From the NCBI RefSeq assembly GCF_004010195.1, contig NC_057760.1:2756647-2796377 (forward strand): a stretch of DNA of 39,731 bases, in the 5' to 3' direction. The position numbers and the translations under genes are program-made. Within the stretch, counting starts at the first letter, position 1; each line of letters starts with the position of its first letter. The DNA comes from Chiloscyllium plagiosum (lineage: Eukaryota). Below, in pieces: positions 3,236 to 39,731 of this stretch. The notes beneath the pieces are model-generated. The model was not told where the DNA came from, ran no database searches, and was given only the letters and a program-made list of their open reading frames with translations.

Positions 3236-3464
3236 AGAAAAGAAGAAATACTACTGTCAGTATTCAAACCATACAATGATTTGACAACTTGATGGTGACA
3301 TTCCCTGAAACTGCCACTTTATTTACAGCTTTTAAACTCTCAAGTTGCCACTTAGTGGGATTTCAGTTTACAGTCCCTCCAGTATTAACCTAAGCCTTTG
3401 CATTAACAGTCCCGTGACATAAACACTATACTGCCATCACCCAGCAGGTGGGAGGAGTCTTTTA

Positions 3465-3629
3465 CAGAGCTGAAAATGTGTTGCTGGAAAAGCGCAGCAG
3501 GATTCCTGAAGAAGGGCTTATGCCCGAAACGTCGATTCTCCTGTTCCCTGGATGCTGCCTGACCTGCGCTTTTCCAGCAACACATTTTCAGCTCTGATCT
3601 CCAGCATCTGCAGTCCTCACTTTCTCCTC
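3465..3629 (+). mobile_element. Short palindromic non-autonomous element (probable Penelope-like derivative) with hammerhead motif and TSD
   Basis: Perfect 33-bp inverted repeat 3465-3497/3564-3596; 14-bp direct repeat GGAGTCTTTTACAG at 3454-3467 and 3630-3643. Confidence 0.8.
3501..3538 (+). ncRNA. Minimal type I hammerhead ribozyme motif (intact core)
   Basis: gattc CTGAAGA A GGGC-ttat-GCCC GAAA CGTC gattc; predicted cleavage after GUC at 3533. Confidence 0.7.
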
Positions 3630-4457
3630 GGAGTCTTTTACAGCCCAACTCATTCAAAATGTGTAAACTTCCTCCTGACAGAACGGACATTTAAGGTAGT
3701 GAGCACATAGGAATGACGGGATCAATGTGTCCCAGGCTCAGTGTCCAGTCTCTATTGTACTGAGAGCTACAGTCATCAGCAGGAGCAAGAAAGGGTGCAG
3801 TTCGAGTGTCTTGCCTTGGATTGTGAGCTGTGCTGTTAGGAGGTCTTTGTGTGCATTGAGTGAGAACCAAAATGTTTCTTTAAGCTATGCTGCCTCACCT
3901 TTGAATAATACAAGGGCACCCCTTGTCTCAGGTCAAGTGCAAAGAACCTCCAATTGGATGAGGTACCAGAGAGCACCATGAGGGGGCACACTTCATGAGG
4001 GGGCTATAATATACTCCTCCCACCTGCTGGGTGAACGCAGTGTAGTGTTCATAAGGCCAAGGTAGACGTCTTGCTGGTCAGTAGAGATTTTACTTGTTTA
4101 AGGTTGATTGAGGAATCTAAATCTGACAAAAGGTGGCAGATCATTTGAAGAGATGCAGCCTGTAGATTGAGAAGTTACAGGGCAGAAGGACGTCATTGAG
4201 CCTGTTGTCCTTACCAAAACTCTGCAAGTATAACACAGTCCCACTTGCACACCTTTCCCGTGCAAGCTTGTTTTTTTAAAACAAGCACCCATTTTCCTAA
4301 TGAAGCTGGTGACTGAACCTTTCCTCACTGCACTCTGCGTTCTGTCTCCTCCTCACTCTCAGACATAGCTTGTTGCATTGAACCCCTTCCCTAATTCCTC
4401 ATATGCTCACAAAGGAGTGTGTACTGATTTAATTTCTAATTTCTCCATTTTAAACAG

Positions 4458-4590
4458 AAAATCTGATTATTATGAGAAGATTACAGATCCAATTGATCTC
4501 ACAAGTATCGAGAAACAGATCCTCACAGGCCATTATAAGACTGTAGAAGCCTTTGATGCAGACATGCTGAAAGTCTTCAGGAATGCCGAG
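4458..4590 (+). CDS. ASH1L: ASH1L coding exon (bromodomain), first in window; upstream exons lie outside the window
   Basis: Acceptor ttttaaacag|A, donor GAG|gtgagg; translates (after 1 nt) [44 protein letters not shown], matching the ASH1L bromodomain as I recall it; 133 nt. Confidence 0.96.
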
Positions 4591-5321
4591 GTGAGGAAGT
4601 AGTTCTTTACCTTGGTTTGGCAGCTATGACCATTGTTATTGGGAAATAGTCTGCTACCCATTGCATGGTGTCCAGATCATGTAACCTTCACGAGTCACTT
4701 GTTTTCCAATTGCTGTCATGAAGAGTAAAGATTATGTTTATGTTCTCACCCCTCACCCCTTCATCTGAGAATGTGTTGCTTGGCTTAATATCTTGCTGGT
4801 TTTGGGATCTCCAGCCTTGAATTCCCACATCATCAGCTTGTGTTCGGGTCATCTTGTTGAAAAGGACGTTTAAAATGTCATCTGAGACAGCTGGTGCTGT
4901 GGGTACTGAGTGTGTGCACTGACAGTGGGTGCTGTGGTACTGAGCTGTACGTTTCAGGTGATCCTGTCAGGATTAGCTGATCTTCTCCAGGCCAGCTGTA
5001 AAGATGGTCAGGTTCGTTTCAATGCCCTGTGTTAGGAAAAGGAAGTGTTTCTACCCTGGATATCGGTATCAGGTAAGGAACCACTGATGATGCTTTAACA
5101 AATAGTCTCCTGGTGCCATCATGGGCTTGGCCTTCAAGAGAAAATATGATAATTAATTAAAATTATATAAAATAAGTTACTGGGGAAGCAAGCTATAGAC
5201 ATAACTTTCTAGAAGGAAAGGAGGTTGATAATGTTTTGAGTGTGAGCTTGTGGGGATGAAGCATTTGGCGGGGGGGAATGTGAAAGTGGGCATTAAGAGC
5301 TACAGGTCAAGATTGGAGTGG

Positions 5322-5355
5322 GCGGCACGGTGGCACAGTGGTTAGCACTGCTGCC
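5322..5355 (+). mobile_element. 5' head fragment of tRNA-derived SINE (box A region)
   Basis: gcggcacggtggcacagtggttagcactgctgcc matches the 5' end of full SINE copies in the window. Confidence 0.8.
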
Positions 5356-5431
5356 AATGTTTTGAGTGTGAGCTTGTGGGGATGAAGCATTTGGCGGGGG
5401 GGAATGTGAAAGTGGGCATTAAGAGCTACAG

Positions 5432-5590
5432 GTCAAGATTGGAGTGGTGCTGGAAAAGCACAGCAGGTCAGGCAGATTTCTGATGAAGGGCTTTTGCCCG
5501 AAACAGTGATTTCCCTGCTCCTCAGATGCTGCCTGACCTGTGCTTTTCCAGCACCAGTCTAATCTTGACTTTAATCCCCAGCATCTGCCT
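5432..5590 (+). mobile_element. Palindromic Penelope-like derivative with partly degenerate hammerhead motif
   Basis: Inverted arms gtcaagattggagtggtgctggaaaagcacag / ctgtgcttttccagcaccagtctaatcttgac; CTGATGA A GGGC-tttt-GCCC GAAA at 5480-5503; 12-bp TSD AAGAGCTACAGG at 5421-5432 and 5594-5605. Confidence 0.75.
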
Positions 5591-5966
5591 ATGAAGAGCT
5601 ACAGGCTTAGTGAGTTGTGTGGGTGGGGGTAATGGGAGGTAAGTGGGGTTATGGATTATTGGAAAAAGGTCAGGCTTGTGGGCCCTAATGACCTTTTGGA
5701 TTTCTGAGCTTTCTTGTTGACAGTGTTCATGTTGGCAGGTTAATTTGTGGGAGCTCATTAGCCACAACTGGGAGCAGATGCCGGCCCAGCACGTGAGGTA
5801 ATCAGCCAGACATTAAGGCCTTTGGCTGTGATAATGAGATGCCAGGTAAATGGCTTTATGCACAGCACTCTGCAAATACCTCGCAGCTGTGTGGTCAGTT
5901 CACAGAGGTCATTGATGTTAGTGAACTGGCTGTGTGGGTTTTGTGATTTTTTTTAGTATCTGTTTC

Positions 5967-6435
5967 AGAGTCATACAGCATGACAACAGACCCTTTGGTC
6001 CAACTAGTCTACGCTGACCATGTCCCCAAAATAACCTAGTCCCACTTGTCTGCAAATGGGCCATATCCCTCCACACCTTTCCTCTTCATATACTTACCCA
6101 AATGTCTTTTAAAAGTTGTAACTGTGCCTGCAACTATCGTTTTCTTTGGTGGTCTGTTCCACTCTGTGTAAGAAAAAATAGTTGCCCCCATGTCCTTTTC
6201 TCAATCCCCCTCCTCTCATCTTAAAAGATATGCCCCCCTAGTTTTGAACTACTCCACCCTGGAAAGCATCCTTGTCATTCACCTTATCTATGCCCTTCAT
6301 AATTTTATAAACCTCGATAAGGTCATCCCTCAACCTCCTACACTCCAGTGAAAAAAGTCCCAGCCTATTTTTGTAACTCAGATGCTCCATTCCTGGCAAT
6401 ATCCTGGGAAATCTTTTCTGAACCCTCTCCAGCTT
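5967..6435 (-). mobile_element. CR1 (HER1-like) LINE 3' fragment
   Basis: agagtcatacagcatg..acagaccctttggtccaac tail, reverse complement of the + strand copies at 9700-10115 and 22912-23205. Confidence 0.8.
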
Positions 6436-7039
6436 TATATTTAGTAATTTTGTTAAATGTTTGTGCTTTGAAGAATGTTGGTGCTGGGAATGGATTGCTT
6501 TCTTTTGGAAGTCACCTTTTTTGCATTATTTTATCAGTTCAGGTATTGCATGGGGAGATGTATTTACTCAGCCCCATCCAGTGTGTTTTAGCTTCCATCT
6601 TCTGACAGCTCTTCATCCTGCCCTGCTGGGGGAATGTTAAATTGTAATGAGAAGCGCTCCTGGGTTTGAGTGTAATGATTGAGTAGCAGAAGAGAATCAT
6701 TGGGACAAATGGTCTAACTTTGGTTCTAAATCCTGTGGTCTTATGATAACACGGAGTGCTGACAAGAATAGGAAAACATTCTTGGGATCTTGCAAAGTGG
6801 TAAAGACTGAGTTCTCCCTGTCCCAGTGTTGCTCCTGTCTGCAGTTTTCTTCTCTCAATCTTGTGGAAGTGCTGATTCATCAGAACAGTCTAAAAAGACC
6901 CTTTCTTCATAAGCTGGGAGGCTGTTCAATTATTTAAAAATGTTGAAGTTGAGCCTGAGTATCCTGCATCCACTGTCCAACAACATTAGCATCAGGGGCA
7001 AGAATCCTAATTGTTTTGTATTTCTCCCCCAAGTCCTTG

Positions 7040-7115
7040 CTTGATTAGGGACAGCCAACATGGATTTGTGAAGGGTAGATCTTGCCTTACAAGTCTTATT
7101 GAATTCTTTGAGGAG
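7040..7115 (+). mobile_element. CR1 RT fragment
   Basis: Translates LIRDSQHGFVKGRSCLTSLIEFFEE, a typical CR1 RT motif. Confidence 0.8.
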
Positions 7116-7297
7116 AAAGTGAGGTCTGCAGATGCTGGAGATCAGAGCTGAAAATGTGTTGCTGGAAAAGCGCAGCAGGTCAGGCAGCATCCAGGGAACA
7201 GGAGAATCGACGTTTCGGGCATAAGCCTTTCTTCAGGAATCATTATTGAATTAAGCGTCGATACTCCTGTTCCTTGGATGCTGCCTGACCTGCTGCA
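7110..7297 (-). mobile_element. Penelope-like derivative with minus-strand hammerhead motif (7204-7241) and partial inverted arm
   Basis: Reverse complement of 7110-7241 is nearly identical to 3501-3629; minus strand reads gattc CTGAAGA A AGGC-ttat-GCCC GAAA CGTC gattc. Confidence 0.8.
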
Positions 7298-7371
7298 CTC
7301 TCTCCCTAGTTACCCTTTTGTCCTTAATATATTTGTAAAATCCCTTTGGATTCAACTTAATCCTATTTGCC
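7297..7371 (-). mobile_element. CR1 ORF2 fragment abutting the gap
   Basis: ANRIKLNPKGFYKYIKDKRVTRER on the minus strand. Confidence 0.75.
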
Positions 7372-7763
7372 NNNNNNNNNNNNNNNNNNNNNNNNNNNNN
7401 NNNNNNNNNNNNNNNNNNNNNNNNNNNNNNNNNNNNNNNNNNNNNNNNNNNNNNNNNNNNNNNNNNNNNNNNNNNNNNNNNNNNNNNNNNNNNNNNNNNN
7501 NNNNNNNNNNNNNNNNNNNNNNNNNNNNNNNNNNNNNNNNNNNNNNNNNNNNNNNNNNNNNNNNNNNNNNNNNNNNNNNNNNNNNNNNNNNNNNNNNNNN
7601 NNNNNNNNNNNNNNNNNNNNNNNNNNNNNNNNNNNNNNNNNNNNNNNNNNNNNNNNNNNNNNNNNNNNNNNNNNNNNNNNNNNNNNNNNNNNNNNNNNNN
7701 NNNNNNNNNNNNNNNNNNNNNNNNNNNNNNNNNNNNNNNNNNNNNNNNNNNNNNNNNNNNNNN
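7372..7763. other. Assembly gap (392 N)
   Basis: Run of N; flanked by CR1 fragments of opposite orientation. Confidence 1.
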
Positions 7764-8244
7764 GGCCACATTTGGAGTACTATGTGCAGTTCTGGTCGCC
7801 TCATTTTAGGAAAGATGTGGAAGCTTTGGGGAGGGTGCAGAGAAGATTTACCAGGATGTTGCCTGGAATGGAGAATAGGTCATACAAGGATAGGTTGAGC
7901 GTGCTAGGCCTTTTCTCATTGGAACGGAGAAGGATGAGGGGTGACTTGATAGAGGTGTATAAGATGATCAGGGGAATAGATGGAGTAGACAGAGTGTTAC
8001 AAGGGGACATAAATTTAAGGTGAAGGGTGGAAGGTATAGGGGAGATGTCAGGGGTGGGTTCTTTACCCAGAGAGTGGTGGGGGCATGGAATGCGCTGCCT
8101 GTGGGAGTGGTAGAGTCGGAATCATTGGCGAACTTTAAGTGGCAATTGGATAGGTACATGGATGGATACCTAAGCTAGGACAAATGTTCGACACAACATC
8201 GTGGGCTGAAGGGCCTGTTCTGTGCTGTATTGTTCTATGTTCTA
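7764..8244 (+). mobile_element. CR1 LINE 3' end
   Basis: PHLEYYVQFWSPHFRKDVEALGRVQRRFTRMLPGM...LERRRMRGDLIEVYKMIRGID; tail tgttctatgttcta. Confidence 0.92.
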
Positions 8245-8458
8245 GTAAAGGCGCAGAGTTTACAAATCATTGCCCTGGCTCAGATTAGCCAACTGCATGG
8301 AGAATGGGAATTGAGTTTGGGACTTAGTACCTCACTGGGGGAGTGCAGGGCTGAGCTCAAACATTGACAAGATCCCTAGTTAATGTTGACCGTAAATGAA
8401 AATGACGGCTATTCCACTTTGTATTGCTTCTGTACTCATTTAACATTATGCGCTTCAG

Positions 8459-8707
8459 AAATACTACGGCAGGAAGTCTTCCATTGGCAGAGATGTTTGC
8501 CGCTTGAGGAAAGTCTACTACAATGCTCGGCACGAAGCCTCTGCCCAGATCGATGAGATCATTGGGGAGACAGCCAGCGAGGCAGACAGCAGTGAGACGT
8601 CTATTGGTGAGAAGGAAAATGGCAATGAGAAAGATGACGATGTGATTCGTTGCATCTGTGGGCTGTACAAGGACGAGGGACTGATGATTCAGTGTGAGAA
8701 GTGCATG
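8459..8707 (+). CDS. ASH1L: ASH1L coding exon (end of bromodomain, acidic linker, start of PHD finger)
   Basis: Acceptor cgcttcag|AAA, donor ATG|gtaagt; 249 nt: [83 protein letters not shown]. Confidence 0.97.
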
Positions 8708-8796
8708 GTAAGTAACTTTCAGAATTGGGCAGCATCCTGGGGGAATTCAAGTTCCACATGTTTACATTTGGATTTCTGTCTGTCTGTCCAACAGTG

Positions 8797-8989
8797 TGGA
8801 GGTGCCGATGTTGGACTGGGGTGGACAAAGTCAGAAGTCACACGACACCAAGTTATAGTCCAATAGGTTTGTTTTACACCAGAAGCTTTCCGAGTGCCAC
8901 TGACGAAAGGGGTGGTGAAGGGACAGTGCTCTTAAAGCTGGTGATTTCAAATAAACCTGTTGGACTATAACATGATGTCGTGTGACTTT
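8797..8989. mobile_element. Palindromic short element, second family (probable Penelope-like derivative)
   Basis: 40-bp inverted arms 8835-8874/8949-8988 with 4 mismatches; related to 35511-35712. Confidence 0.7.
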
Positions 8990-9699
8990 GTTGTACAGGG
9001 CAGAGTTTCAGGTGACCTGGCAGAAGTCGTAAGAATTTTTTTAATGCATTTATTTAATGTCACATCTTGGGGCTGTCCCAAAGCAAAGCACAGCACATCC
9101 AGTGAATTTTGATTTCCGTTCTGCTCCAGAGCCAGGAGGTCTCTGGTGCCTGGTCCATCAGGAACACTTGATGGAGATTTGGGCAGAGACTTCAGGCACA
9201 GTCCTAATGGACAAAGCTCTTAGTTTGGTGATGTTGACTGACGGGTGATTGTTCGCCAAGATGCAGGGAAGAATGTGGAAAAGTGCATGGATGACCACTT
9301 GAGATATCCTAATATTCAAGGTTATGGAAAAGTGGGATTAATGTAGGTAGGTTGGTGCAGACTCAATGGGCTGAAAGGTCTGTTCTGTGCCGAATGACTA
9401 TGGCTGAGTAAACCCTAAACCCTTGCAAGCCACTGCTCTGCTGAATAATGTAATCTGGACCAAACAAGGAGCTCTTGCCTGTTCACTGTGGGTCAACAGC
9501 ATATTTTCTGCTGATTTTAATTCTCTGGGGGTCATGCATAGCTTTGGAGGTCCCTCATTCAGCTATGAAATTATGTCTTGAGTGGTGTGCGCCTCTATGG
9601 AGATGGCGGTTTGGGATTGAGAGTTAAACAAGCAGAAATTGTAGTTATTGTGAAGTAGCAAGTTAGCCTGGAGCAGTGTTTCTTTAGAGCAGTAAAACT

Positions 9700-12739: not shown

Positions 12740-13578
12740 GTAGGTGGATGCTGGGGAGAATGGCCTTACTCACGTGCCTTCATGTGAGAAGCTGATAGCA
12801 TTCCTGACATACACACACACATGTATCTTCAGAAAAGTAACAAAACACAAACCCCAGTTGGCATATATTCCATTGAAATGTTGTATTAATGTTGGGCTGG
12901 ATATCAGGTACTTGGGGTTAAGAAGACTGCCGTAACAGGTGTTTGCATGGAAGTAAAATCCAGCACGATAGTCATTACTTATCAGCTCAGCTACTCTAAT
13001 ACAGCTCTCTTTTCACTGCTACCCATTAACAATCCACCATTTGGTGCTGCACCTCTTTCTCCTTGGGCTGGCTTGTCTCCTGGTGCAATGATCAAATCAG
13101 TAGGGGAAGAAATGGAAAGCTTGCCAGTGCTTTATGTTGGTCATTGTACGGTTAGAGGGGGCTAAACTCTAACTTCACATGAAGTTTGGGGGGGGTGGGG
13201 GGGGGTGGGGGGGAAGAAGACACTGTCAGCACATTGGACCAGTATTCTGTTTGGATGTGCAGACAGTGTGTGAAACATTTACACTCAACAAATACGGTTC
13301 CAGCAACACTTTTTTAACAGCTTGCTTTCAACTCGTTGAAACATCTCAGTATAACACTGGGCATATCAGCAAAGTGACCAAAGGAAAGAGATTGGTTGTT
13401 CTGCACAGCTTAAGTATTGGTGACAATTGTTTCCCATGAGCACCAACTTTAATCTTTAACCTTAGTCAAAACATAAATGTGGAAACCTTTCTAAGTTGAC
13501 GTGGAAATCACCAAGGAATTTTAAATTTTGTACCTTTGCTCCACTCTTCTGATCAACTCGGTATATGTTCTGCTGCAG

Positions 13579-13717
13579 GTGACTGTGTCTATCTGATGAG
13601 AGACAATCGGCGAGGGCCTGAGGGCCAGCCTGTCCGACAGTCCTACAGACTGCTCTCGCACATCAATCGTGACAAGCTCGATATCTTCCGTATTGAAAAG
13701 CTCTGGAAGAACGAAAA
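13579..13717 (+). CDS. ASH1L: ASH1L coding exon (BAH domain)
   Basis: Acceptor tgctgcag|GT, donor AA|gtaagg; 139 nt: (G)[45 protein letters not shown](K). Confidence 0.96.
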
Positions 13718-13792
13718 GTAAGGCAGCTGCAGGATCAACTACATAATGCAAACTTGTAAAATGGCTCCTGAACCGCAGTGACCTGGGCACTT

Positions 13793-14540
13793 CCCCAGTG
13801 TTACACAGTGACAGACCTGTCCCCCACCAGCACTGTACCCCAGTGTTACACAGTGACAGACCTGTCCCCATCCAGTACTGTACCCCAGTGTTATACAGTG
13901 ACAGACCTGTCCCCACCAGTACTGTACCCCAGTGTTATACAGTGACAGACCTGTCCCCACTCAGTACTGTACCCCAGTGTTATACAGGGACAGACCTGTC
14001 CCCCACCAGTACTGTAACCCTGTGTTACACAGTGACAGACCTGTCCCCACCAGTACTGTACCCCAGTGTTATACAGGGACAGACCTGTCCCCCACCAGTA
14101 CTGTACCCCAATGTTATGCAGGGACAGACCTGGCCCCACCAGTACTGTATCGCAGTGTTGTACAGTGGCGACCTGTCTCCACCAGTACTGTACCCCAGTG
14201 TTACACAGTGACAGACCTGTCCCCACCAGTACTGTACCCCAGTGTTATACAGGGACAGACCTGGCCCCACCAGTACTGTATCGCAGTGTTGTACAGTGGC
14301 GACCTGTCTCCACCAGTACTGTACCCCAGTGTTACACAGTGACAGACCTGTCCCCACCAGTACTGTACCCCAATGTTATACAGTGACAGACCTGGCCCCA
14401 CCAGTACTGTATCGCAGTGTTGTACAGTGGCGACCTGTCCCCACCAGTACTGTACCCCAGTGTTACACAGTGACAGACCTGTCCCCACCAGTACTGTATC
14501 GCAGTGTTGTACAGTGGCGACCTGTCTCCACCAGTACTCT
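13793..14540. repeat. Minisatellite, 43-45-bp unit, about 17 copies
   Basis: Unit ccccagtgttayacagtgacagacctgtccccaccagtactgta; one degenerate unit continues after the insertion at 14668-14710. Confidence 0.97.
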
Positions 14541-14544
14541 ACTC

Positions 14545-14664
14545 CTGATGAAGGGCATTTGCCTGAAACGTCGATTTTCCTGGTCCTCTGATGCTGCCTG
14601 ACCTGCTGTGGCTTTCCCACACCACGCTCTCGATTCTAATCTCTAGCATCTGCAGTCCTCACTT
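14545..14664 (+). mobile_element. Penelope-like derivative with hammerhead core, inserted in the minisatellite end
   Basis: CTGATGA A GGGC-attt-GCCT GAAA CGTC gatttt at 14545-14578, then the family tail gatgctgcctgacctgctg...agcatctgcagtcctcact. Confidence 0.75.
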
Positions 14665-14928
14665 GCACCCACCAGTTCTGTTCCCCAGCATTATACAGTG
14701 ATAGGCTTGTGTACACTGGTACCACATTTGAAAATATTCTGTCCAGACACAGCCTAAGTTTGGAAGAGCGTGTCCTCAAATTGTACAGCTAAGCTTATTT
14801 CCCCAGTTGAAGTCTGAAACTAACGTGCGTTTGCCATCACCTTTTACTGGTGCGGTATTTTGCTGCCTATATGTTATTTTGAAATTCCATTTTGCTTGAT
14901 GTCATGATAATCTCTATTGTTCTGACAG

Positions 14929-15101
14929 AGGGGAGCGATTTGCCTTTGGTCATCATTATTTCCGACCCCATGAGACCCATCACTCCCCTTCAAGACGGTT
15001 TTACCATAACGAGCTATTCAGGGTGCCTCTGTACGAGATTATCCCTCTGGAGGCAGTGGTTGGAACCTGCTGTGTGTTGGACCTCTACACCTACTGTAAG
15101 G
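14929..15101 (+). CDS. ASH1L: ASH1L coding exon (BAH domain)
   Basis: Acceptor tctgacag|A, donor G|gtgagt; 173 nt: [57 protein letters not shown](G). Confidence 0.96.
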
Positions 15102-15915
15102 GTGAGTGAAATTTTAGTCTCTAAGCCTTTTCACCCCTGTCCCTGTCCCTGTCCTGCTAGTTTCCCACCACTGTTGATGTCACCTTTTGTGCTAGCTGTT
15201 GAACACTGAATGGTTCAAGATGGTGTGAACCTCCCCCAGTCAGTGCCCTTCGTGATTTCTTCTGTTACCTCCCTGACCCAGGGGTTCTCCACACCTGAGC
15301 ATGGAACCCAGGCTTAAATTCACTTGGAGTGCACACCAAAGGTTAGCACCACAGCTCCCTGGATCATGATCAAAAGTTGGAATCCAAGCTGTTTATAATA
15401 CCCCTAACTCTGCACATCCTGGGGGTAAGCTCTGCCCCTTTACGTAGAGTTGGGCAACATTTATGAACGTAGACTTTATCGTGCATGTCTGCATTGTTGT
15501 TTAGCATCTACACATACCACCTCCCATTCCTCTTCATGTCACTCCACCAGCATATCCCTTTATTCCTTTCTGTTTGCTGTGTGTCCAGCATTCCCCTTCG
15601 GTGCATCTCTGCAATTCAACTTAATAGTAGTGTGGTCAGGAGTTCCACATTCTCAGCACACCCTGGGTGAAGTGGTTTCTCCTGAACTCCCAATTTATTA
15701 GTTCGTCTTTTTTTTTAACCTTTTGTCGCCTTTTAAAGGAATTTCTGAAAGTCACCACTGAATGTGAGTAGAAGTTTACCCTGTCATGAGAAGGTGTGAA
15801 AGCCAGCCGTGCCCTGCCCTAAGCTTTGTTAGAGGGTTAGCTGTGGTGAAGTTTTGTGCTGGAGCTTGTAACTGCACTGTTAATGCACTCTCACCTTTCC
15901 CTTTTGATGGTTTAG

Positions 15916-16082
15916 GGAGGCCAAAGGGTGTGAAAGACCAGGATGTTTACATCTGTGACTATCGCCTGGATAAATCTGCACATCTCTTCTATAAGATCCA
16001 CCGGAACCGCTATCCTGTCTGCACAAAATCCTACGCATTCGATCACTTTCCGAAGAAACTGACACCCAAAAGAGATTTCTCT
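15916..16082 (+). CDS. ASH1L: ASH1L coding exon (end of BAH domain)
   Basis: Acceptor ggtttag|GG, donor TCT|gtaagt; 167 nt: [55 protein letters not shown]. Confidence 0.96.
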
Positions 16083-16595
16083 GTAAGTGTTAATGGTGGG
16101 ATTGTTGCTGGCCGGGGGTGGGGGGGATGGATCAGAAGGGATTCAGGGGTAGGTGTCGGGTGAGCTCCTGGTGAGGGAGAGCAAGTGAAGGAAATGAATG
16201 CTTCAGTTTGTAGTTGGTTTGTTAACCTGTTGTGTACACTGCTGCTGCTACACGGTTAGGTTATACCCTCTGTCTGCCCCTTTTTCCATATGAGCCCCTC
16301 CTGCACCCTCTGCCAAATTGGAGAGCTGACCAGTCGTTTTGCCATTTGCAGAAAGAAGCACTGTTGGGAAATTAAGGTGCGGGGCCCCTAGCTTCACTTC
16401 AGGCAATTGCTCAAGGCCCTGGCAGCAGAGAGGCCAGGGTGATGACATGCATGGCAGAGGAAAGTGAGCCCTGAGAGGCTGGGCGGTGGGATGGATGAAG
16501 CCTGATGGAAAGGAGTGTTGTTGTGCCTAGTCATAATTTTTAAACCAAAATCTGCTTTTTGTTTTCTTCTTCTTCTGCTGTTTACTTTCCATTAG

Positions 16596-20050: not shown

Positions 20051-21128
20051 TGGGTGACTTTTATTTCCCTTCATCTTAGACTTTGCTGCACTCCCACCTA
20101 CCAAACAGCCTTAACAAAGATGTGAGTAAAGACATTAGTGAATAAATAAGTGAATGAGTGATTGATTTCATTTCACAATATTGTCATAATATCTGTGCAT
20201 GTGTGTCTGTTTAAAATGGAACTTGGCGTTCTTGCAAACTTATCCACAGTTATGTGATTGTCTTTTGCAGTGAATTGGTTATAGTACATTCCTCTTCTAG
20301 GTTCATACAAACATGCTGGATACAACAATGAAGGCCAAATGGCCTCTGATACTTGGAAATTGGACCAAGGAATTATCTATTATAAATGGGGGGGGTGGGA
20401 TGCAACTTGGAACAACCCATCTGTTGTTCCCATCAAGAGCTATGTACTGTCAGTCTGTGGTTCCCCACCTCCAGTCTCTCAAAATCAGTGTACCATTCCA
20501 GAGTCACAGAGCAAGATCTCCAGAAATACAAGAGCATTTCCAGGGAGTTGATGTTGAATTTTTTTTTAAACAATTTGGATGCTGCACACTAGGGACCTTG
20601 ATTAAAGTTGGTGTACAGTAGAAGTGATTCTGCTGCCTATGCCTTTGGGTATTGAATAAATGCTTGAAAGGGAATGCGTTTTCAGGACAGGATACAAGGA
20701 CTAACTGTAAAGCTCTTTCAAATCAGCTAGCCCAGGCATGTTTGGCTGAATGGCCGCCTCTTGTTCTTGTATCATTCCGTTTTATAACTGGCATTATTTC
20801 CTTCAACAATCAAACTTTGAAATGGTTTGGGAATAGTTTAATTCTGTTTAACCAGAAATTCTGAAAAGACTAGTACTATCCAAGTATTAAAACACTAAAC
20901 TTGGAAACTTTGCACACGTGTGAGATTATTTTTCTTGTGTTGAACGAGTCACTGAGCACTAACTAAAATAAGGTGCAGGATCTGAAAGTGTTTCAGGAGC
21001 AGACTCTGCATGTGCCATGTCTGAAGTAGCAGTGACCATAATCCTGAAGTCACAGACCTGCAGCCACATCTCAAGTGTTTCCTTTTTTTCTCCACCCTGT
21101 TCCTATCTGGGCGGGACACAAACAACAG

Positions 21129-21391
21129 ATCCTCGTGGAAAACGGAGAGAACAAAAGTGCACTGCAAGGAGGTAGTTCAGGAGGAAGACCTTCCACCCCC
21201 CATCATTGAGGACATGTCAACCGCCCAAGAGCAACCAGCTGCTGAGATGCCCCACCTGGAGGAGCAGGAGAGCGAGAGCAGCAGTAACCCTCCGAAAGTG
21301 GATTGTAACCCAGAGGAGAAGCAGAGATTGCAGAGAGACAACCTCAACAAAATCCTCCTGAACCTGTTGGCCAAGATCCCAGGAAAAAACG
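21129..21391 (+). CDS. ASH1L: ASH1L penultimate coding exon (acidic linker and C-terminal helix)
   Basis: Acceptor aacaacag|A, donor G|gtgagg; 263 nt: SSWKTERTKVHCKEVVQEEDLPPPIIEDM...CNPEEKQRLQRDNLNKILLNLLAKIPGKN. Confidence 0.92.
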
Positions 21392-21727
21392 GTGAGGCTT
21401 GGCTATTGGCTAAACAGTTTCACCAGGAGCAGGGTGATTATGCAGCTTACAGCTGTGTAGATAAGAAAGGGATGGGTGGGTGTTATAGTTTGGGTGATGC
21501 AATCATTATGCCCTGCACTGAAGAGGAAATGTCTCCCACCAGCCCAGCTAGGTTAAAATGTCTCATGCTGTCAGATATAGGCATATTGGTAAAGTGCATT
21601 CTCTTGGCTAAAAAGCGTTAGTGTATTGCAGGTTCCTGGCATCACACACTGAAGGGTGTGAGGCCATGATCAATCAGCAATAAATATTGACTCGCCAGCA
21701 ATGCCCATATCCCTAGAATAAATTAAA

Positions 21728-23460: not shown

Positions 23461-23568
23461 AATTATTCTAAAGTAATCCTGTTATCTTGAATAAGTAGTT
23501 TGTTAGCCTTTTCACAGACAAACGGTACTGAGTAACTAAACTGGTCTTTTGGTTTGTCTGCTTTCCAG

Positions 23569-23660
23569 CTATCGACGTAACCTACTTGTTGGAAGAAGGA
23601 TCGGGGAGACGGCTACGTAGGCGCACACTAATGTTAACTGAGAGCAGCTTCAGGAAGTGA
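23569..23660 (+). CDS. ASH1L: ASH1L last coding exon, to stop codon
   Basis: Acceptor ctttccag|CT; (A)[29 protein letters not shown] then TGA at 23658-23660, matching the recalled vertebrate ASH1L C-terminus (...SFRK*). Confidence 0.96.
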
Positions 23661-24554: not shown

Positions 24555-27500
24555 AATAGCACTTAAAGTGTCTTTGTAGTTGGGTCAGGGAGAGGAGGGG
24601 TCTTGCTCTGGGTGGAATGGGATCTTTGGTTTTGACTTTTTCTAAGTTCATTGAGGACATTCAGAGATACCATTGTTGTTGTCCTAAGCTGTGTGTCTGG
24701 TGTGCTCCGTAAAGCAAATAAATTAAGGTGTGCTTTCTCAAAAACCGTAACCCCATCCCCCCGGAGGTTTGCACACAAGGGTCTCCTGCTGGGACTGATG
24801 GCGACATTGCGCACCACGCAAATTACACCTAGCTTAATGGCGACTATGCTTGAGGACAAGTCGAAGAGCTTGTTCTAAGTTGTGCTTCCTGTACTCTTGG
24901 TAAAAGAGAAGGTTATGAAAGAACCGAGCACCAAAGAGTTAATTTTGTTATCAAAACAAGTGATCTGTGGATGAAGTTTCTCATTCCCATTAAGCTCTGA
25001 GAGATTAACATCTCTCCTGAGCAATTTTCTCCCAACTAAGACCCCACTATTACAAAGAGTCTGGGGGTCCTGGAATATGTGATTCGGGGCTAATTCTTTC
25101 TCTAGAATCTGTTAAGACTTTTGAACAAGCCACTCATTTGGCCCATCAACCCTAATCCTTTTGTAAATCCATTTGCGACTCCGCCTCCAGGCAGTTCTTT
25201 CGCTGGCCCATTTCCTGTCCCAAACCTATCTTTAATGAGCCAAGCTTTGAGTGGTTTGTTTGAAGCTGTTCCTGCCACCTTTAACATCAGATGTGAATGG
25301 GTCCCAAACTTTGATGTGAAACCGGGACTGATGATCCCACGTCTAATTAGGCGTACGGTTCCTTTCAAACAAAAACACATGGCCAAACAATAACATTGTC
25401 ATAACTTGAACCATACAAGCTGCTGCTGTTTCCTCAAGTTCCTGTCCCCCTTACTTTGTTATTACTTATTTCCAACCTGGGGTGAGCTGGGGTTTGCATG
25501 CTGTGTACCCATAGTGCAGTGCAGCAGGGCAGGAAGTCACCTTGCCCATTGAATCGGCTCAGGCTCTTTCTCAGGGGGAGGAAGATCACTTTGGTTTATT
25601 CCACTTGCCCTTGTTCTTATTTCATTTGTTTCTCTCGTTTGAAATACTTATCTATTTCCCTTTGCATTTGTATCTCCCACCTGATCAGGCAGCGCGTTCC
25701 AAAGCTAAATGAACCATTGTGTCATGTCATGTCTGATTCATTCTCTTCCCCCCCCCCCCCACCTTTGATTTTCAGGGAGAGCCACAGTACAAGTCCAGAA
25801 TTATTGTCTGCTCTGTGACCGGCTCTGATCTCGCTGTACATTAGGAGAAAGTATACCGGTTTTCCCCTCCCTCTCCCAACTCCGTCATCTGTTTGATTTT
25901 TTTGTTGTCATGCAGTTAGCAATTCACAGCCGTTACCCCCTAGAATTGGATCACATGGATTTGCAACGAGTAAATCTGACCACATTATTAAAATGATACA
26001 TGACTTGTGACTTCTATTTCCTGATGACATTCATTAGGTTGAGTCTGACTGTACCTGAACTCTTGCCTATAGCATCTTGGCCAGAAACATAAGGCAGAAT
26101 CCCTGTCTCTTTTGCTTCATTCAACATTTCCTCCCTCCCAAAATTTATAAACTCCCCTGGCCCCGCTGAGTGTTGTCATCTATTTCCAGTACCTGCCCTG
26201 CTGAGTGGCAGCTCGCCAAAGAGACACCAAACCTCTGCCCCAAAATTACTGAACACAGCAGAGGGCGTGGTGGGGAGGAAGTCTCTTACAGGAAGAGCAG
26301 TGGGTCGCTTACTCTCCTTGAAAGCTCTGCAAGCAGAGGTATCAGGGCCATGTGGGGAAAGGGACTGAGTGTTGATTGCCAGGTCAACCACTCGTGTTGG
26401 GGGCCATGTCAAAATACATTTGAACTGAGGTTTTGGTGTGTGAACGGATTGGGAAGCCACAGTTACCGAGGGTCTTCACTTGTGTACAGTATTAACCAGC
26501 TACATGTGCAACACCAGTAACACCAAAGTCATGGCCAAGTGGAGCCAGTGTGAAATCTTCTCTTTTCTTAAAATAAAACCAACATAAGTAGGCAGGAGAA
26601 TACAAAAGGAAAGCCACTACAGAAATGAAAAGCAGTATTCAAAATGAAAAAGTATTTGTTGTGAAGTAGAAAACATTCGCGTAGAAGTAATAATCAAGAC
26701 ACTACGTCTGTGTTCTGTTTGAACTGTACAGTGTAGTACCTTCCCGCCCATTTTAACTAAAAAAAAACGAAAAAGGAAAAAAAAAGCTTTGCTTTGTCCG
26801 TATGTAAGCTTATGCAGTCCCACTCCCAACATCCTTTTAAATAAGTAAAAAACAGAAATTATGATGTGCCAATGTGTACATATCAGTTGTGTGGTTGTCA
26901 GCAATACTGTCATCACATGTTCCTTTACATGGACCAATTCTGTCCTAATGTACAAACGCATTGCGTCAATCTCAGTGGAACATGTTCCATCCCATTCCCC
27001 TTTTGTGTCTCAAAAGAAGAAAACCCTTTGAGATCGTATTTTATTAAAAAAAAATCGAAAAAAGAGAAAGATTGTTTTGACTATTTTCTTACTGCAAAGC
27101 AACACTGTACAGTAGCAGACGATTGAGTATGAGATACTCGATTCATCATTGATAGGAGTTTTGACAGGTCTGTAATATTTTCATTTGTCTCCTATAGACA
27201 TTTCACTCTTGGTAATAGTGTCAAACACTAAGAAAAATACAAAAAAAATTTATATATGTAGAAGGCACACTATGTCTGTCATTTTCTCTTTCTTTGCCGA
27301 AAGATTAAATCATGTTTTAGACAATCAGTGGTTAGGTAATGCCATTTTATTTTTTTTCTTCCTCTTTCCTTCCCTTCCCCTACCCTACCCTCCCCTCCTT
27401 ATTGGCATAGAAAGTGATGACAGGTTTTTTTTTAAATGTTTTTTTTGGGTTACTTTTTAAAAAAAAATTACAAAAACAAAGTCACGGAATCGCTGTTTAA

Positions 27501-39182: not shown

Positions 39183-39731
39183 GGTCAGTGCTGAGGGTGT
39201 GGGCACTGTCGGAGGGTCAGTGCTGAGGGAGTGGGCACTGTCGGAGGGTCAGGTCAGTGCTGAGGGGGTGGGCACTGTCGGAGGGTCAGGTCAGTGCTGA
39301 GGGAGTGGGCACTGTCGGAGGGTCAGTGCTGAGGGAGTGGGCACTGTCGGAGGGTCAGGTCAGTGCTGAGGGAGTGGGCCCTGTCGGAGGGTCAGTGCTG
39401 AGGGAGTGGGCCCTGTCGGAGGGTCAGTGCTGAGGGAGTGGGCCCTGTCGGAGGGTCAGTGCTGAGGGAGTGGGCCCTGTCGGAGGGTCAGTGCTGAGGG
39501 AGTGGGCCCTGTCGGAGGGTCAGTGCTGAGGGAGTGGGCCCTGTCGGAGGGTCAGTGCTGAGGGAGTGGGCCCTGTCGGAGGGTCAGTGCTGAGGGAGTG
39601 GGCCCTGTCGGAGGGTCAGTGCTGAGGGAGTGGGCCCTGTCGGAGGGTCAGTGCTGAGGGAGTGGGCCCTGTCGGAGGGTCAGTGCTGAGGGAGTGGGCC
39701 CTGTCGGAGGGTCAGTGCTGAGGGAGTGGGC
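39183..39731. repeat. Minisatellite, 32-bp unit, about 17 copies, runs off the window end
   Basis: Unit gtcagtgctgagggagtgggc(a/c)ctgtcggagg. Confidence 0.97.

Follow-up and report, generated by a model that had tools for sequence, protein, structure and literature searches.

Minimal hammerhead motifs have been described in Penelope-like elements by Cervera and De la Pena (2014; PMC4209133), and in the sections of that report drawn on here they are of type I order with no real helix III, a palindromic 15.1-16.1, an extra base between positions 9 and 10.1, a G10.1-C11.1 pair and a short helix I. The copies reported are mostly solo, derive from truncated elements and include some opposite-strand pairs. 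These traits are shared by the motif and family examined here in Chiloscyllium plagiosum, with the differences that helix II is 4 bp long, compared to 7-8 bp in the Schistosoma motifs of the same report, and that the copy number is far above the 4,000-9,000 quoted there for coelacanth and Xenopus. The conserved intronic hammerheads of amniotes of the RECK type (PMC6155905) share the type I order and the intronic location, but they are reported as conserved single-copy motifs with canonical helices, whereas the present motif belongs to a recent repeat copy and lacks those helices.

Insertions of a related layout are also on record. Craig et al. (2021; PMC8557442) and Arkhipova et al. (2013; PMC3846280) report inverted 5'-truncated copies with a tail of 30-40 bp at one end, and inverted copies with a one-sided tail are likewise reported in PMC8969392. 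Head-to-head arms, a one-sided tail (36 nt here), a target duplication and a microhomology junction are common to the copies of the first two reports and the insertion described below, which differs from their units in being reduced to 162 bp without an ORF; target duplications in its family are mostly 13-16 bp, compared to 8-10 bp in the rotifer cases. For PAc, a Poseidon element of Anolis (Frangieh et al. 2024; PMC11167929), both target strands were reported to be cut and extended in vitro, with reverse transcription starting at two internal sites that bound the tail on a template continuing past it, and the hammerhead was described as dispensable and as cleaving only with protein. The two internal start sites and the continuing template have counterparts in the present family, as would the cutting and extension of both strands. 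PAc belongs to another clade, however, and its start site is described without a strand difference; neither a rule of one site per strand nor a template end before the hammerhead is stated for it in the sections of that report drawn on here. How Penelope-like elements insert is still unsettled, and the many young copies of this family provide a genomic test. Searches of the open-access literature found no relevant paper on a hammerhead in ASH1L, on hammerheads or Neptune-type Penelope elements in sharks, or on an untemplated base, cap or pLTR of Penelope-like elements.

Structure of the insertion in the ASH1L intron

The window analysed is a stretch of 39,731 nucleotides of contig NC_057760.1, numbered on its forward strand. 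An insert of 162 bp without an ORF was found in it between the two copies of a perfect 14-bp direct repeat (3454-3467 and 3630-3643, + strand, 100% identical in a repeat search), representing the left and right target-site duplications. The insert consists of an untailed antisense arm of 34 nt (3468-3501, - strand), which repeats family positions +57 to +90 in reverse (numbered with C3 of the hammerhead core as 0), joined head to head to a tailed sense arm of 128 nt (3502-3629, + strand), which is the pseudo-LTR end: it begins at position -4, takes in the hammerhead and stops where the tail ends. The tail occupies the last 36 nt (3594-3629, + strand), between the two classes of 3' end found in the family. 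Relative to most family copies, the sense arm carries a 3-nt deletion at 3563, across which the antisense arm pairs with it.

A preliminary description of this DNA had reported the direct repeat, a perfect 33-bp inverted repeat and a young, target-duplicated insertion. The first and last of these were confirmed, and the repeat search recovered the inverted repeat as perfect (3465-3497 and 3564-3596), but three of its 33 bases (3465-3467) belong to the target duplication and not to the element. The inverted repeat has an apparent length of 33 bp because the left duplication closes with these three bases, which complement the template immediately beyond the short priming site. No tandem repeat was identified at the locus, and the hammerhead motif is single.

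The motif itself (3501-3538, + strand, predicted cut 3533/3534) has the sequence given in the preliminary description and is a minimal type I hammerhead of Penelope type. Helix I is formed by 3501-3505 with 3534-3538 and contains a U-U pair at 3503/3536; it is followed by the core (3506-3512), an extra A (3513), helix II (3514-3517 with 3522-3525), GAA (3526-3528), a palindromic 4-mer (3529-3532) as the remnant of helix III, and C17 (3533). Core boxes, the extra base after A9, G10.1-C11.1, the palindromic helix III remnant and a short helix I are thus all present, and the hammerhead-core pattern matched three times in the window compared to 0 in 100 shuffles. A search with hammerhead models, which the preliminary description had put forward, returned none among six Rfam matches at E<=10; canonical models expect a stable helix III, here a 4-nt palindrome, together with loop contacts, and the miss is to be expected of a motif without that helix. 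The miRNA-like Rfam matches obtained were far below thresholds and were rejected.

The placement of the insertion in sense within ASH1L was upheld by matches to + strand ASH1L exons on both sides. Downstream, frames at 4369-4599 (E 1e-20) and 8444-8707 (E 3e-47) match solved ASH1L chains, while an upstream + strand exon (locus L061) matches a solved ASH1L chain with E 3e-5; a small exon about 1.5 kb before the start of the window was located with short motifs. The host intron is about 5.9 kb long and is closed by a bromodomain exon (4458-4590, + strand), given here as context and not as part of the element, which lies 814 nt upstream of the 3' splice site.

Parent element and abundance of the family

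Family copies extending upstream of the motif were found to translate into a GIY-YIG domain (PF01541, E 1.6e-4), at a score of 22.3 bits that lies just under the Pfam cut-off of 22.6, and a C-x4-C-x2-C linker precedes this domain in three loci (L108, L114, L120). A reverse transcriptase frame (RVT_1, PF00078, E 1.1e-5, 25.7 bits, under the cut-off of 29.6) was identified in a gap-free copy that ends in the same pseudo-LTR. Judged by these sub-cut-off Pfam matches, the hammerhead motif is positioned in the pseudo-LTR downstream of an ORF encoding reverse transcriptase and GIY-YIG. Craig et al. (PMC8557442) give a CX2-5CxxC linker before a C-terminal GIY-YIG as the mark of Neptune, shared with Nematis, and the family examined here shows the same arrangement of a C-terminal GIY-YIG after a Cys linker. 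In addition, the features of endonuclease-bearing Penelope-like insertions are present, namely 5' truncation, a 5' inverted copy, a one-sided tail of 30-40 bp and a target duplication. From these sequence features, the insertion is likely to be a young, passive, 5'-truncated copy of an autonomous retrotransposon, with the parent assigned to Neptune-type Penelope-like elements by the linker definition. The two-armed, 5'-truncated architecture has already been described, and the 162-bp stub is an ordinary copy of a known kind.

Walking upstream did not find a 5' pseudo-LTR joined to the ORF's beginning, long copies being broken by assembly gaps. Two kilobase-long two-armed insertions (L338, L363) have the same layout as the short copies, with Pro/Thr-rich short repeats upstream of the reverse transcriptase domain.

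The family is very numerous. In the 3.56 Gb genome assembly, the 33-nt core has 29,848 exact copies (reversed control 0), or one per approximately 120 kb, and a 24-mer of the arm has 90,287; a pattern for a sister subfamily gave 38,687 matches, compared to 42 in its control. Five further insertions or pieces of the family were found in the window and the 30 kb upstream of it, three of them inside the window. A sense copy in an ASH1L intron is expected by chance at this abundance, and the special link to ASH1L implied by the preliminary description was not sustained given this density and the five neighbouring pieces. The single locus matters little, being one among tens of thousands of similar stubs.

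Two of the copies in the window are older and lie in sense to ASH1L. The one at 5444-5588 is two-armed with a broken core, while that at 14543-14664, where a 44-45-bp tandem array (13748-14538) ends, has kept its core with a G-U pair in helix II. The third (7110-7293) is antisense and 96% alike across the whole arm; beyond a short spacer comes a sense fragment beginning just before the cut site, and the copy adjoins an assembly gap (7372-7763).

Arm architecture and the route of insertion

The 3' ends of family arms fall into two classes, one near +90 (untailed, spanning +84 to +97) and one near +126 from C3, the 36 nt between them being the tail. The start site is internal to the RNA, since 261 copies continue for a few shared bases past the tail. 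A set of 156 loci, taken with either the core or the arm as anchor, yielded 48 two-armed insertions, and 45 of these combine one tailed with one untailed arm (p 7e-11 against 0.5). The exceptions, as scored, were two with no tail on either arm and one with a tail on both; one of the three is a mis-scored arm consisting of the tail alone and two are complex. An exact target duplication of 12-18 bp accompanies 35 of the 48. Mismatches between the paired arms of an insertion amount to 47 of 1868 sites (2.5%), compared to 4.4% for shuffled pairs and a lowest value of 3.5% among 500 shuffles, and at a site evenly split in the family both arms agree in 36 of 38 pairs. Being more alike than shuffled pairs, the arms of one insertion come from one template.

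In four loci (L344, at about 1990-2050 on the minus strand, together with L045, L056 and L176), the antisense arm is the tail alone, joined to the sense arm by microhomology. The sense arm of L344 reaches into the ORF.

The rule of one tail per insertion, along with the variants shared between arms, points to paired priming on one RNA. Family statistics and the published in vitro data together make it rather probable that insertion proceeds by a double-strand cut, paired priming on one element RNA and head-to-head joining at microhomology. The GIY-YIG nuclease would cut both target strands approximately 14 bp apart, and each target 3' end would then prime reverse transcription on a single shared element RNA, one where the tail ends and the other about 36 nt upstream. 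Joining of the two cDNAs head to head at a short microhomology would leave an inverted repeat tailed at only one end, together with a target duplication, with the hammerhead motif carried along as part of the pseudo-LTR. No paper stating such a paired-priming rule, or Penelope twin priming with inversion, was found in the open-access literature.

A point against paired priming is that the shared arm variants fit fold-back copying equally well. The inverted arm could instead arise by fold-back (self-priming) of one cDNA or template, or by the shortening of a fuller palindrome between CAGG repeats, which we consider possible but doubtful. Self-priming has been argued from junction palindromes for rotifer Penelope elements (PMC3846280), and in the present family every junction among similar copies stops at a CAG(G) repeat, with three central variants that full palindromes also show. 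Plain fold-back alone, however, gives neither the one-tail rule nor two fixed outer start sites (45/48), does not give the unrelated letters found between arms at junctions (gaps of up to 43 nt), and sits poorly with the 3-nt deletion present in only one arm of the copy described here. The shortening of a palindrome by deletion is compatible with paired priming.

The 5' ends bear on where the template of paired priming begins. They were scored in 100 listed arms, which cover the first 1.83 Mb of contig C1 on both strands and what lies beyond on the + strand only; 13 of these arms, abutting gaps, were dropped (n=87). Ends at -5 to 0 account for 37 of the 87 arms and ends at -5 to +10 for 54, with none at -43 to -15 and 16 further upstream. 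The hammerhead cut site was rejected as the main class, as only four of the 87 end near it. This sharp edge before the hammerhead, and not at the cut site, speaks for a template that is uncut and probably capped, and the template RNA of paired priming probably starts at the front of the hammerhead core.

A genome-wide count of the base before -4 gave 23,664 copies with the templated C, 5,322 with G and 3,500 with either A or T, so that G makes up 60% of the non-C bases, compared to 28% expected from the GC content of the window; in the 5'-end sample, G precedes seven of ten ends at -4 but two of 13 at -3. Both subfamilies agree around -4 with the initiator consensus YYANWYY, and in other retrocopies the cap is copied as an extra G. 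The simplest reading is a capped RNA that starts at -4 with its cap copied in this way. An internal promoter inside the pseudo-LTR has been reported for the Penelope element of D. virilis (PMC2377424). Against a capped start, microhomology at the junction supplies some of the G bases (including G3501 of this copy), and the second subfamily shows a far weaker pile-up at the core front, most of 30 loci from it continuing upstream. The possibility that -4 marks a splice junction, which has been reported for the motif of D. virilis, was rejected, as no AG precedes -4 in long copies.

Activity of the hammerhead motif and the host gene

The preliminary description had treated the U-U mismatch of helix I as a reason for doubt about activity. 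As a sign of decay this does not hold, since almost every copy of either subfamily has U-U there. Prediction with ViennaRNA, which models neither the catalytic fold nor help from protein, gave a fold of the element at z = -8.0 with helix II at p ~1 and helix I at p < 0.05, the latter remaining unformed because the long hairpin takes up its 5' side. Covariation of helix II among copies, also anticipated in the preliminary description, was not detected: pair counts for helices I and II over 31 motifs (18 distinct) gave no measure above shuffles, with none of the four helix II pairs changed on both sides, a weak test given rows that are 96% alike. In the report of Cervera and De la Pena (PMC4209133), single minimal motifs did not cleave and dimers showed low cleavage. 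Self-cleavage in ASH1L is thus improbable, as helix III needs a dimer, helix I barely forms and single minimal motifs are inactive, and the lone motif in its hairpin most likely brings about no useful cleavage of ASH1L pre-mRNA.

That the motif is an active ribozyme altering ASH1L processing is accordingly very unlikely, whether it acted by itself, with the sense motif at 14545, or in trans together with the protein of the element and further family RNA. All core positions are intact on the sense strand, a cofold of the minimal motif allows pairing between two copies, protein-assisted cleavage has been published for a related motif (PMC11167929), and a poly(A) run contains RNA of the family (1,718 reads). 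These observations are set against the cleavage results for minimal motifs, the low probability of helix I in context, the covariation result and the chance expectation for intronic sense copies given above; in addition, just one further intact sense motif was found in the window, at a distance of 11 kb and several introns. Given the tens of thousands of intact minimal hammerheads in the genome, intronic sense copies might be cut in trans, by pairing of the palindromic helix III with other family RNA and with help from the protein of the element, which is likewise very improbable; if true, Penelope activity would trigger the cleavage of many host pre-mRNAs, with that of ASH1L included.

Sequencing runs were also examined. 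The family reads of the poly(A) run (X19) included none on the unique flanks of the element and showed no shared begin or end point of molecules, a fragmented poly(A) library being unable to show cut or cap ends; about 180 of its reads continue beyond the tail in a single common A/T-rich sequence, which suggests one expressed family copy in a 3' untranslated region. Run X20 had 0 family reads. Contigs from two runs of unrecorded library kind (X15, X16) match exon 4458-4590 exactly, which suggests RNA, and enter the element by 5 and 25 letters, short of the 31 letters required for presence in other individuals; no empty site was found among the joints listed from these contigs. A-to-G differences in both runs were not accepted as editing, the runs being without a DNA control.

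The preliminary description had proposed a non-autonomous insertion. A non-autonomous mini-element (similar to a SINE or retrozyme) transcribed and copied as a 162-nt palindrome is largely refuted: although 29 loci including this copy have a similar short-arm structure with target duplications, the exact junction occurs in only 20 copies, compared to tens of thousands of family copies, the 29 closest loci carry 18 haplotype strings, the left arm agreeing with the right in each locus, and arm lengths vary continuously in unbiased samples. The 20 junction copies sit on several haplotypes and so do not form a separate family, the junction structure being a recurring by-product of insertion and not a replicating unit. 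Non-LTR retrozymes (preprint 10.64898/2026.07.22.740005) share the type I hammerhead and a link to Penelope, but are defined in the cited part of that preprint by a tandem array, and the insertion is not one of them because tandem units are absent.

Further + strand frames resembling ASH1L exons were observed at 8444-8707, 13500-13718, 14900-15106, 15768-16160, 21025-21618 and 23532-23657, with bromodomain and PHD regions identified by PDB match and the frame at 14900-15106 identified as BAH by Pfam; those with no PDB or Pfam match are presumed to belong to ASH1L. A YoeB match on an ASH1L exon frame was sub-threshold and was dismissed as noise. A + strand frame of 95 residues rich in P, F and N (25106-25390) may be a coding exon of ASH1L or of a neighbouring gene, and a tandem array of 32- and 37-bp units (39183-39731) extends to the end of the window.
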